Source of the DNA: Escherichia coli
Lineage (GTDB): Bacteria; Pseudomonadota; Gammaproteobacteria; Enterobacterales; Enterobacteriaceae
Assembly: GCF_016903815.1 (NCBI RefSeq)
Contig: NZ_CP069973.1
Strand: one strand, 5' to 3'
Length of the DNA stretch: 64,000 nucleotides
Position 1 is the first letter of the stretch, and each line of letters starts with the position of its first letter. Positions 11,927 to 28,673 of the stretch are shown here, in pieces. Under the pieces are notes generated by a model. It did no database searches and was not told the DNA's origin. It saw nothing but the letters and a program-made list of their open reading frames with translations. Made by a program: the position numbers and the translations under genes.

Positions 11927-12703
11927 ATGTTACGTTTCTCTGCTAATTTATCGATGTTATTTGGTGAATATGATTTTCTCGCCCGTTTTGAGAAAGCTGC
12001 GCAGTGTGGTTTTCGCGGCGTTGAATTTATGTTTCCTTATGACTACGACATTGAAGAATTAAAACAGGTGCTGGCGAGTAATAAACTCGAACATACGCTG
12101 CACAATCTACCGGCGGGTGACTGGGCGGCGGGCGAGCGCGGTATTGCCTGTATTCCTGGCCGTGAAGAAGAGTTTCGGGATGGCGTAGCAGCAGCGATTC
12201 GTTATGCTCGTGCGCTGGGTAATAAAAAAATTAACTGTCTGGTCGGTAAAACGCCGGCTGGTTTCAGCAGTGAACAGATTCACGCAACGCTTGTAGAAAA
12301 CCTGCGTTATGCCGCGAATATGCTGATGAAAGAAGATATTTTATTACTGATTGAACCTATCAACCATTTTGATATTCCTGGTTTCCATCTCACCGGAACT
12401 CGGCAGGCGCTGAAATTGATTGATGATGTTGGTTGCTGCAATTTGAAAATTCAGTATGACATTTATCATATGCAGCGGATGGAAGGTGAATTAACCAACA
12501 CTATGACTCAATGGGCCGATAAAATTGGTCACCTGCAAATTGCCGATAATCCGCATCGCGGCGAACCGGGAACCGGAGAAATTAATTACGAATATCTCTT
12601 TACGGTAATTGAAAATTCTGACTACAACGGTTGGGTTGGGTGTGAATATAAACCCCAAACCACCACGGAAGCCGGTTTACGCTGGATGGATCCGTACCGT
12701 TAA
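11927..12703 (+). CDS. hyi: Hydroxypyruvate isomerase
   Basis: 258-aa ORF; synteny gcl-hyi-glxR. Confidence 0.85.
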   Translation: MLRFSANLSMLFGEYDFLARFEKAAQCGFRGVEFMFPYDYDIEELKQVLASNKLEHTLHNLPAGDWAAGERGIACIPGREEEFRDGVAAAIRYARALGNKKINCLVGKTPAGFSSEQIHATLVENLRYAANMLMKEDILLLIEPINHFDIPGFHLTGTRQALKLIDDVGCCNLKIQYDIYHMQRMEGELTNTMTQWADKIGHLQIADNPHRGEPGTGEINYEYLFTVIENSDYNGWVGCEYKPQTTTEAGLRWMDPYR

Positions 12704-25747: not shown

Positions 25748-26563
25748 ATGACGATCATCCATCCTCTGCTTGCCAGCCGTAGCGCTCCGAATTATCGCCA
25801 GTCCTGGCGGTTAGCGGGCGTGTGGCGGCGGGCGATTAACCTGATGACGGAAAGCGGCGAACTGTTAACGCTGCATCGTCAGGGTAGTGGTTTCGGCCCC
25901 GGAGGATGGGTGCTTCGCCGCGCGCAATTCGATGCGTTATGCGGTGGATTATGCGGCAATGAACGACCACAGGTTGTGGCTCAAGGCATTTGCCTCGGAC
26001 GTTTCACGGTTAAACAGCCACAGCGTTATTGTTTGCTGCGTATTACGCCGCCTGCGCATCCTCAACCGCTTGCAGCGGCATGGATGCAACGCGCGGAGGA
26101 AACCGGGCTTTTCGGGCCGCTGGCGTTGGCGGCAGGCGATCCGCTGCCTGCTGAATTACGCCAGTTTCGTCACTGTTTTCAGGCCGCGCTCAATGGCGTT
26201 AAGACCGACTGGCGGCACTGGCTGGGTAAAGGGCCGGGATTAACGCCGAGTCATGATGACACGCTGACGGGAATGCTGCTGGCAGCCTGGTATTATGGCG
26301 CTTTAGATGCGCGCTCCGGTCGCCCGTTTTTTGCCTGTTCCGACCATCTTCAACTCGTTACCACTGCGGTGAGCGTTAATTATTTACGTTATGCCGCGCA
26401 AGGATATTTCGCCTCGCCACTCCTGCACTTTGTTCATGCTCTGAGTTGCCCGAAACGTACCGCTGTTGCGATTGATTCGCTGCTGGCGCTGGGACATACG
26501 TCAGGGGCAGATACGCTGCTGGGGTTCTGGCTTGGTCAACAATTATTACAAGGAAAACCATGA
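25748..26563 (+). CDS. ylbF: Conserved protein YlbF
   Basis: 271-aa product from '[12 protein letters not shown]'; the longer ORF-track start overlaps ylbE. Confidence 0.7.
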
Positions 26564-27453
26564 AAACACTGGTTGTAGCTCTTGGGGGCAATGCCTTGCT
26601 TCAGCGCGGTGAGGCGCTGACGGCAGAAAATCAATATCGCAATATCGCCAGCGCTGTACCCGCACTGGCGTGCCTGGCCCGTTCTTATCGGCTGGCGATT
26701 GTTCACGGCAACGGGCCACAGGTGGGGCTGTTGGCGTTACAGAATCTGGCGTGGAAAGAGGTAGAACCGTATCCGCTGGATGTGCTGGTGGCGGAAAGCC
26801 AGGGGATGATTGGCTATATGCTGGCGCAGAGCTTGAGCGCACAGCCGCAGATGCCGCCTGTCACGACGGTGCTGACGCGCATTGAGGTTTCGCCTGATGA
26901 TCCGGCGTTTTTGCAGCCAGAGAAGTTTATCGGTCCGGTTTATCAGCCAGAAGAACAAGAGACACTGGAAGCGGCTTACGGCTGGCAGATGAAACGTGAT
27001 GGTAAATATTTGCGCCGGGTGGTAGCGTCTCCGCAACCGCGTAAAATTCTCGACAGCGAAGCCATCGAGTTGTTGCTCAAAGAGGGGCATGTGGTGATTT
27101 GCAGTGGCGGCGGCGGTGTGCCTGTGACGGATGACGGAGCAGGGAGTGAAGCAGTGATTGATAAAGATCTCGCCGCTGCGTTGCTCGCCGAGCAGATTAA
27201 TGCCGATGGGCTGGTGATCCTCACCGATGCTGATGCGGTATATGAAAACTGGGGAACGCCGCAGCAACGTGCCATTCGCCATGCCACACCGGATGAGTTA
27301 GCGCCATTTGCCAAAGCCGATGGTTCGATGGGGCCGAAGGTAATGGCGGTGAGTGGCTATGTCAGAAGCCGTGGCAAACCTGCGTGGATTGGGGCGTTAT
27401 CGCGGATTGAAGAGACGCTGGCGGGCGAAGCGGGGACCTGTATTTCGCTGTAG
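26560..27453 (+). CDS. ybcF: Carbamate kinase-like protein
   Basis: 297-aa ORF with amino-acid kinase fold features; ATGA overlap with ylbF; synteny. Confidence 0.8.
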
Positions 27454-27522
27454 TGATTGGGGTATTTGGCAAGAATTAAGGCTCTGAGAAAGATTCCAAA
27501 CCCCAAATAAGAACGCGGACAG

Positions 27523-27561
27523 TCCCCTCGCCCCTGTGGGGAGAGGGTTAGGGTGAGGGGG
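27523..27561. repeat. GC-rich imperfect palindromic intergenic element (REP-like)
   Basis: 'tcccctcgcccctgtggggagagggttagggtgaggggg' between convergent ybcF and purK; family not confirmed. Confidence 0.3.
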
Positions 27562-27605
27562 AAAACTGCTTGCGCATTAGCTTTTAAGCAGGTTTGTGCA
27601 CCAGG

Positions 27606-28673
27606 TTAACTGAACTTACTCTGCGCCCAAATCACGCCACTGGCATACTCCGGCGGCAGCAGCGGGATTAAGGCTTCCAGCGCCGCGGTCAGACGCGATG
27701 TGTCGCTGTCGGTCAAATTCAGATGCCCCACTTTACGCCCCGGACGGACTTCTTTGTCGTACCAGTGCAGATGCACCAGCGGCAATTTCAGCCAGTCATA
27801 ATTCACATCGCTACCAATCAGGTTGATCATCACCGACGGACTATTCACTACTGGTTGCGGTAACGGCAGATCGGTAATCGCCCGCAGATGCAGCTCAAAC
27901 TGGCTGATGCTGGCACCGTTTTGCGTCCAGTGACCACTGTTATGCACACGCGGAGCCAGTTCGTTGATCAGCAGACCTTGCGGGGTGACAAAGCACTCCA
28001 TCGCCATCACGCCCACATAGCCCAGCTCCTGCATAATCGCCGACAGCATCTCTTCGGCTTGCGCTTGCTGCTGCGCATTGGCCTGCGGGAAAGCGACGCT
28101 GGTACGCAAAATACCGTCCTGATGCAGGTTATGCGTCAGCGGATAAAACACGGTGCTACCATCAAAGCCGCGCGCGCCAACCAGCGACACTTCGCCAGAG
28201 AAGTTTATGCCCTGCTCGACAATACATTCGCCGTAGCATTCAGCCGGTAACTGTTCGGTTTCATCGGCGCGTAAACGCCATTGACCGCGTCCGTCATAGC
28301 CACCAGTGCGACGCTTAACAATCGCCAGCTCACCTAAACGCTTAAACACCGCAGGCCACTCGCTGCGATCGGCAAGTAACTGCCACGGTGCGGTCGGTAG
28401 GTGAAGCTTGTCGAAAAGCTGCTTCTGAGTCAGACGGTCAGCAATAATCGGGAATACATCGCGGTTCACAAAGGCCGGATGGCGCGCCAGCTCGCGGGTT
28501 AATGCGGTTTCCGGCCAGCGTTCGATCTCAGCGGTAATCACGCTTTGTTGAAAAGGCACCGCCGCCGGTTCAGCGTCCAGCCCGACTGGCCAGACAGCAA
28601 TGCCTAACGGTTCGCCTGCCTGGCGCAGCATACGGCCTAACTGCCCGTTACCGAGGACGCAAACCTGTTTCAT
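27606..28673 (-). CDS. purK: N5-carboxyaminoimidazole ribonucleotide synthase
   Basis: 355-aa ATP-grasp ORF overlapping purE stop/start. Confidence 0.9.

Follow-up and report, generated by a model that had tools for sequence, protein, structure and literature searches.

The GC-rich element tcccctcgcccctgtggggagagggttagggtgaggggg, which occupies positions 27523-27561 of a 64-kb stretch of Escherichia coli DNA (the whole of which is called the window below), is almost certainly one copy of the non-coding dispersed repeat known as BoxC, PIT, TM-ECO or HPG1, built of one C-rich and two G-rich blocks. The best overall explanation, to which we assign a probability of roughly 0.65, joins this identity to a lineage-specific spacer between the genes ybcF and purK and to a passive copy of a repeat that may be spread or maintained by a dedicated enzyme. 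In the wider family, BoxC is associated in a fixed orientation with genes for DUF559 nucleases of the YcjD type, and within E. coli the number of BoxC-like places correlates with the presence of ycjD.

Positions 27525-27559 match exactly the three-block consensus CCCTCNCCC N3-6 GGGNGAGGG N3 GGGNGAGGG, taken from the description of TM-ECO (PMC4666352; Holder et al. 2015), in which TM-ECO is equated with the element named earlier BoxC and then PIT. The window holds the 35-nt three-block pattern once, where shuffled sequences give an expectation of 0.00. An identical 36-mer is listed in Table S8 of PMC4666352 as entries 60 (UTI89 562046-562081) and 61 (APEC O1), and the UTI89 coordinates fall between ybcF (which ends at 561974) and purK (which ends at 562127), in a spacer that is also 152 bp long. 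Since the same 36-mer has been tabulated in the same ybcF-purK spacer of these two genomes, the element, and this very copy of it, were already known and catalogued. The window copy resembles the published family in its exact consensus, its type A architecture with the usual single mismatch, its intergenic location and its occurrence in many copies. It differs in loop 1 only, the sequence CTGTG being found in none of the 23 strict copies of K-12 (Table 1 of PMC4666352), with which it is otherwise the same, including the identical core upstream of fabI (K-12 copy 9); at the locus itself K-12 has a bacterial interspersed mosaic element (BIME) and not BoxC. A 49-nt BLAST query matches 5,425 of the 5,426 complete E. 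coli genomes at a median of 19 places each (range 1-33), so the motif is far from unique, and the first-pass annotation, which had likened it to the extragenic repetitive elements of E. coli and proposed a genome-wide search for copies, was right in kind, the element being BoxC and not a repetitive extragenic palindromic (REP) sequence.

The name HPG1 is a structural reading of the same repeat: the 21-mer GGGAGAGGGTTAGGGTGAGGG, so called by Kaplan et al. 2016 (PMC5100583), is identical in the window and is preceded by the C-rich block. Equivalence with the original 56-bp BoxC is probable, going by the statement made in PMC4666352, by the sizes listed in PMC2267715 (50-56 nt, 22-32 copies) and by the core upstream of fabI, the extended unit measured here being 60-70 nt. 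A scan of 27000-28000 with the covariance models of Rfam (E up to 10) gave only chance matches and no family; the best of these, with 19 bits where the gathering score is 40 (E 0.4), was to a eukaryotic antizyme frameshift element and was taken as chance. BoxC reportedly goes back to Bergler in 1992 and to Bachellier and colleagues in the 1990s, and PIT to Hoyne and Maher in 2000 and 2002; as first defined, BoxC is said to have measured 56 bp and to have had about 32 copies, and its first description was presumably of the copy upstream of fabI (envM).

The imperfect GC-rich palindrome that had been noted at this place is confirmed, with 27524-27533 and 27551-27560 forming an inverted repeat of 10 nt that is 90% complementary. 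An alternative hairpin, of 27525-27534 with 27538-27547, is mutually exclusive with this pairing, and as RNA the arm 1-arm 3 and arm 1-arm 2 hairpins have energies of -20.6 and -16.7 kcal/mol, respectively. RNA folding, which had been suggested as a check, yields a stable structure on both strands: 27523-27561 folds with -22.1 kcal/mol on the plus strand (z -2.0 against shuffles) and -18.6 kcal/mol on the minus strand (z -2.2), and the 56-nt stretch 27515-27570 with -28 and -22.1 kcal/mol, respectively. As single-stranded DNA or RNA, BoxC can adopt either of these hairpins, or in vitro fold as a triplex of purine type or as a G-quadruplex. Canonical G-quadruplex motifs (four G runs of at least 3, loops of 1-7 nt) number two on the plus strand of the window, one of them in BoxC, and none on the minus strand. 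No open reading frame (ORF) of at least 20 amino acids covers the element. The parts of the repeat are as follows.

27525-27559, plus strand: BoxC / TM-ECO three-block core, type A with one mismatch, CCCTCGCCC-CTGTG-GGGAGAGGG-TTA-GGGTGAGGG, from the consensus match
27525-27533, plus strand: arm 1, the C-rich block CCCTCGCCC, which pairs either with arm 2, leaving one G.A mismatch, or with arm 3, with one G.T wobble
27534-27538, plus strand: loop 1, CTGTG, whose outer C and G pair and leave TGT as the actual loop
27539-27547, plus strand: arm 2, GGGAGAGGG, from the consensus match and the alignment of 18 copies
27548-27550, plus strand: loop 2, TTA, which defines type A (Table 1 of PMC4666352)
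27551-27559, plus strand: arm 3, GGGTGAGGG, from the inverted repeat and the consensus match
27497-27564, plus strand: extended repeat unit, consisting of an A-rich run, GCGGACAGTC, the core and GGAA, common to other type A copies
27538-27561, plus strand: canonical G-quadruplex motif with four G runs of at least 3 and 3-nt loops, containing the 21-mer of HPG1

BLAST similarity to other loci spans query positions 44-111, or 26-107 in the case of the gntP-fimH copy. An alignment of 18 type A copies reveals a core of about 41 nt that is almost invariant and flanks that diverge, with the 5' flank partly kept (consensus aaaa..g.gc.cg.aC.GTC[core]Gaa) and a whole unit of about 60-70 nt. Statistics of loops and pairing were drawn from 175 cores gathered from E. 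coli and nine other taxa. Among these, first loops of 5 nt have complementary ends in 29 of 31 copies, and in first loops of 6 nt the outer pair is complementary in 64 of 64 and the next pair in 62 of 64; this lengthens the arm 1-arm 2 hairpin and leaves an actual loop of 2-4 nt, and the hairpin of the family is under constraint. The central position is either T, which pairs with arm 2, or G, which forms a G.A mismatch with arm 2 and a G.T wobble with arm 3, and a compensating change in arm 2 almost never occurs, so that the sequence is conserved as well as the pairing. A consensus scan of representative genomes gave at least 120 loci, the matches listed including beta-, gamma- and alphaproteobacteria, Verrucomicrobia, Myxococcota and others. 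The same core is multi-copy, among the matches listed, in Mitsuaria, a Polaromonas metagenome-assembled genome (MAG), Contendobacter, Hyphomicrobiales, Verrucomicrobia and other MAGs, and it is also found in plasmid or chromid records of Sinorhizobium, Rhizobium and Azospirillum.

A gene for a RAYT-type transposase was expected at first between BoxC pairs, and the ORFs found there proved to encode DUF559 proteins. Two ORFs lying between neighbouring cores in Mitsuaria (loci L122 and L123) match the DUF559 profile (PF04480) with E-values of 1e-38 and 2e-39, and a third Mitsuaria ORF (L125) aligns with YcjD by tblastn at 52% identity (E 7e-26). E. coli YcjD, whose gene lies beside BoxC copy 9, is itself a DUF559 protein (E 1e-49), and the DUF559 proteins scored also show a weaker match to REase_MTES_1575. 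DUF559 is placed in the Vsr / PD-(D/E)XK group, among whose members are an enzyme that nicks mismatches and a homing endonuclease. The four loci are as follows.

L122, 5881-6600: Mitsuaria DUF559 locus with flanking BoxC, from profile search or tblastn
L123, 1113-1752: Mitsuaria DUF559 locus with flanking BoxC, from profile search or tblastn
L125, 11516-12019: Mitsuaria DUF559 locus with flanking BoxC, from profile search or tblastn
L001, 4195-4761: K-12 ycjD locus, from the DUF559 profile match

All three Mitsuaria genes have a BoxC just upstream, in gene orientation, and an inverted BoxC that overlaps their 3' end. In K-12 the ycjD stop codon is overlapped by a partial inverted BoxC hairpin and an intact core follows 171 nt downstream, so that BoxC flanks each of the four DUF559 genes first seen. 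Further homologues were collected from metagenomes using an alignment of the four proteins and the patterns [VI]ELDGGQH and ..KFRRQ, which fall within the catalytic core, outside the tail that the repeat encodes. The resulting 80 loci (L149-L228) are 43-58% identical to YcjD, except for two of E. coli type (100% and 96%), form 65 clusters at 70% identity and range in locus G+C from 32 to 70%. The BoxC hairpin is present at 59 of the 80 loci (42 of the 65 clusters) and the full three-block core at 43, and at 20 loci both ends of the gene are flanked under strict patterns. Full cores are concentrated 62-fold near the genes, with 81 in the 42 kb within 250 nt of gene ends against 6 in the 195 kb farther away. 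Upstream cores are in gene orientation in 28 cases and opposite in 12, the former being the closest to the gene, whereas at the 3' end 30 are inverted against 11, their starts falling between 22 nt before and 74 nt beyond the point where the protein match ends. The stop codon often falls within the loop of the inverted copy, which gives the proteins C-terminal tails such as PSPxPSP; stops lie in a C/G-rich hairpin in 41 of 75 DUF559 genes but in only 14 of 554 control ORFs (odds ratio 46, P 1e-31). In some of the homologues (L156, L158 and L160) the repeat found at the two ends is another three-block one, CCTTCCCC.. GGGGGAAGG.. GGATGGGGG, which suggests that repeat variants may accompany particular nuclease subfamilies. 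In an independent study, DUF559 genes were enriched among genes that carry inverted repeats (PMC9881135). No literature linking DUF559, ycjD, PF04480 or COG2852 to BoxC was found in a search of incomplete coverage, which leaves novelty unproven.

Some further peculiarities of these loci may be recorded. At the 3' end of ycjD (L001 4330-4480, minus strand) a segment of about 42 nt (GGAGACGGTGCTGGAGAATATTC...) is repeated about 60 nt past the stop codon, beside the partial inverted BoxC. The homologue with 96% identity (L150) is an ORF of 121 amino acids with an intact inverted BoxC, and fits the published 12-nt difference of the forms found in sequence types (ST) 69 and 182. In L125 the BoxC upstream of the Mitsuaria DUF559 gene is directly followed by tandem copies of the 9-nt unit GTGCTCCGT (12020-12113), which continue to the end of the stretch.

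Within E. coli, 3,377 of the 5,426 genomes contain the ycjD region. Among 59 genomes sampled at even spacing and compared in one search, the median number of other BoxC-like places is 20 in ycjD-positive genomes (n=37) against 6 in ycjD-negative ones (n=22; P 3e-8), and the presence of ycjD is thus correlated with BoxC numbers in this species. The copy in the ybcF-purK spacer of UTI89, a strain which we take to be of ST95, is the sole strict copy in that genome. Strict counts published for individual strains are 23 in K-12, 11 in Sakai, 2 in CFT073, 1 in UTI89 and 2 in APEC O1 (Table S8 of PMC4666352). ycjD has been reported from phylogroups A, B1 and C and from ST69 and ST182, with eefRABCD at the ycjD site in lineages such as B2 and E, including the ST95 genome that is figured (PMC12817139).

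The spacer that holds the element had been described as an otherwise ordinary intergenic region, which it is not, being a polymorphic site with alternative alleles. Its surroundings comprise the following features.

27454-27605, no strand: 152-bp BoxC-bearing spacer allele between the stop codons of convergent ybcF and purK, alternative to REP/BIME arrays
26560-27453, plus strand: ybcF, from the ORF list, named after the RefSeq annotation of identical genomes
27606-28673, minus strand: purK, from the ORF list, named after the RefSeq annotation of identical genomes
27562-27595, no strand: weak inverted repeat AAAACTGCTT...AAGCAGGTTT with A and T runs, outside BoxC (fold z -0.7 / -0.1)
27457-27509, no strand: imperfect inverted repeat TTGGGGTATTTGG...CCAAACCCCAA, particular to this spacer (fold z about -0.9, not significant)

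The last two were dropped as features, their folds being no better than those of shuffled sequences. The 152-bp allele is a minority form, found in 237 of the 5,426 genomes, and a REP-type left junction is seen at ybcF-purK in 4,873 (about 90%). In K-12, SE15, Nissle and TL20 this spacer holds between one and five REP-pair units (L002 3334-3527, L003, L004 and L005), and the exchanged stretch runs from TGAT, just past the ybcF stop codon, to GCACCAGG, just before that of purK. Two other loci behave alike: ypfG-tktB has BoxC in ETEC6334 and REPs in K-12 (L009 against L146 5640-5735), and tauD-hemB has BoxC in K-12 and a plain GC hairpin in ST131 (L132 against L147). At all three the entire spacer is swapped, from stop codon to stop codon. 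Between the window and UTI89 (L148), ybcF differs at 29 of 894 positions (3.2%) and purK at 41 of 1,068 (3.8%), whereas the spacer differs at 0 of 152, with 5.4 differences expected at the rate of the flanks (P about 0.004 for zero) and the closest differences lying 16 nt and 13 nt beyond the spacer. This identity suggests a recent short-patch transfer or strong constraint. As to a phage or plasmid source, no full-length match to the 152-bp spacer was found outside E. coli chromosomes; one record labelled as a plasmid, with 100% identity to the spacer, is 4.9 Mb long and presumably a mislabelled chromosome.

Based on the association with DUF559 genes and the correlation with ycjD, we tentatively propose, at odds that fall somewhat short of even, that BoxC is the cognate and mostly non-autonomous partner of YcjD-type DUF559 nucleases, constituting a second REPIN/RAYT-like system, built on a nuclease of unrelated fold and present in many phyla, with the window copy as an orphan; we would attach the same tentative weight to a dependence of the BoxC family on a DUF559 nuclease. 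The autonomous unit would consist of a BoxC, the nuclease gene and an inverted BoxC overlapping its stop codon; derived from this unit, convergent doublets and solo copies would spread or be maintained through the nuclease. Four of the five BoxC pairs of K-12 are convergent, as is expected if the gene was deleted from such a unit. The nuclease would act on the repeat, and the solo copies would depend on it. The window copy may then be regarded as an orphan because its lineage, into which it was probably imported recently by short-patch recombination, is reported to be without ycjD. For this copy itself we lean towards a passive repeat with no dedicated local function.

Several observations weigh against this proposal. 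The correlation between ycjD and copy number is confounded by phylogeny, with few deep lineages involved, and some ycjD-negative genomes still hold 15-23 BoxC-like places. That the lineage of the window is without ycjD is reported from the literature and from related strains, and an intact copy where the other copies of the lineage have decayed requires the special explanation of a recent import. K-12 ycjD lacks an upstream BoxC and its 3' copy is decayed, and at 21 of the 80 homologues the hairpin was not matched under the patterns used. The 64-kb window contains no DUF559 gene, so this locus gives no test of the nuclease idea. Simple insertion with target-site duplication was considered and rejected, whole-spacer replacement being seen at tauD-hemB, ypfG-tktB and ybcF-purK instead, and no target-site duplications were found at the three filled and empty sites compared. 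The motif has moreover been described as not associated with transposons, phages or plasmids (PMC4666352). Binding or cutting of BoxC by YcjD is putative, and the evidence for a link between nuclease and repeat is correlative.

The first-pass annotation had suggested a terminator or an mRNA-stabilising structure, and it is unlikely, though not far-fetched, that the element serves as a 3'-end RNA device of the convergent genes in one of these two ways. Both strands give a stable RNA hairpin, 9 of the 14 type A copies that stand alone in E. coli sit between convergent genes, and at three loci the other allele is a REP/BIME or a plain GC hairpin, which suggests that a 3' hairpin is always retained. 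The anatomy of an intrinsic terminator is, however, absent: the element is followed by GGAAAACUGC on the plus strand and by ACUGUCCGCG on the minus strand, with no U-tract beside either hairpin, and a terminator scan passes it over for a single unrelated 5-bp stem on the minus strand (1 site found against 0.4 expected in shuffles). A canonical intrinsic terminator was rejected for this reason, and according to the summary in PMC4666352, which cites the Maher laboratory, PIT elements were found to have neither promoter nor terminator activity and no effect on RNA polymerase. Some copies also lie upstream of genes, antisense within operons or between divergent genes, and the core is kept across phyla in sequence beyond what pairing needs, with the G.A mismatch uncompensated. 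The inverted repeat at 27562-27595, outside BoxC, might act as a weak bidirectional terminator, though its fold is no better than that of shuffled sequences. By analogy, BoxC as an mRNA-stabilising 3' hairpin or exonuclease barrier is plausible because other strains keep a REP/BIME here, or a plain hairpin at tauD-hemB; read-through transcripts of ybcF or purK would gain a stable 3' hairpin, which may slow 3' exonucleases as REPs do.

Less probable still is that the element acts as a non-B DNA device, that is, an intrastrand triplex or a switch between G-quadruplex, hairpin and duplex that obstructs replication or transcription and is a source of local instability, whether to the use or to the harm of the cell. 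Here the motif is a canonical G-quadruplex sequence, the isolated strand of consensus oligonucleotides folds as a triplex in vitro according to circular dichroism (CD) as well as nuclear magnetic resonance (PMC4666352), CD shows a switch between G-quadruplex and hairpin for the closely related HPG2 (PMC5100583), TM-ECO loci vary more between strains than control intergenic sites (PMC4666352), and the ybcF-purK spacer is polymorphic. Yet in vivo footprinting with dimethyl sulfate detected no triplex protection and the duplex prevails once the complementary strand is present (PMC4666352, PMC5100583), such variability is equally expected around any mobile or recombining repeat, and the fixed-orientation bracketing of DUF559 genes is left unexplained. 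That a host protein unrelated to DUF559 binds the element as DNA or RNA, making it a regulatory or nucleoid-organising site in the manner of IHF or gyrase at BIMEs, seems very improbable. Such a site would account for the conservation of the core at the level of sequence, with 41 nt near-invariant in 18 copies and the core kept across distant phyla, but no match to a known transcription-factor motif has been reported (PMC5100583), the neighbouring genes share no common functional theme (PMC4666352), and in entire E. coli lineages almost every intact copy has been lost with no evident effect. GC richness and intergenic position alone would speak for a chance palindrome or for a fragment of a REP/BIME; this reading is already refuted, as 0 matches are expected by chance against thousands of copies, no GCCKGATGCGRCGY-type REP consensus is found at up to 2 mismatches in 27454-27605, and megablast aligns REP-bearing alleles with the window in the flanks only.

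BoxC resembles REP/BIME sequences in being extragenic, mostly at gene 3' ends, hairpin-forming and multi-copy, and in replacing them as the alternative allele at ybcF-purK and ypfG-tktB, but it has no sequence similarity to them, is composed of three blocks rather than a simple imperfect palindrome, has far fewer copies and lacks the GTAG tag. A parallel in the way of working is offered by REPIN-RAYT systems, reportedly described by Nunvar et al. in 2010 and by Bertels and Rainey in 2011, insofar as the BoxC family brackets one small nuclease gene in inverted fashion, occurs as doublets without the gene and as solo copies, and has a copy number that tracks the gene; variant repeats that go with nuclease subfamilies would likewise resemble RAYT families, each with its own REP. 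The partner of BoxC is, however, a DUF559 protein of the PD-(D/E)XK type (Vsr fold) and not a HUH Y1 transposase, and the repeat has a third block. Because the associated gene is DUF559 / PF04480 and not a HUH Y1 RAYT, BoxC is, on this comparison, not a REPIN, and the resemblance is one of functional analogy and not of membership.

At ybcF-purK itself, then, we are dealing with a catalogued repeat that needs no new explanation, and the wider family matters more. Since 1992 neither a function nor an origin has been assigned to BoxC, biophysical studies of triplexes and quadruplexes included, and the reproducible, oriented association with a nuclease gives a directly testable hypothesis, namely that YcjD acts on BoxC; if true, this would also give a function to the very widely distributed domain DUF559. 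The spacer alleles that occur naturally at ybcF-purK, with BoxC or with BIME arrays of one to five REP-pair units, also provide ready isogenic material for asking whether such repeats influence the 3' ends of convergent genes.

Some minor observations concern the distribution and decay of the repeat. The G strand of the K-12 type A copies shows no significant leading-strand bias (10 against 5, from the coordinates of Table 1 and the positions of oriC and the terminus). Between rluF and yjbD of K-12 (L145 5228-5359) there is a decayed BoxC with arm 2 mutated to GGGAAAAGG, which the strict consensus misses, and published strict counts therefore understate the relic copies. In the MAG GL140_5 (L018-L043) and the Polaromonas MAG (L044-L075), the core lies within repeats of about 110-125 nt that resemble miniature transposable elements and fall into two or more subfamilies; these repeats are often at contig ends, which suggests that assemblies broke there. 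Two Campylobacter phage records (MG065686.1 and MG065691.1) contain three BoxC-like places each, at about 92% identity, which is odd for the host and may reflect contaminating enterobacterial DNA.

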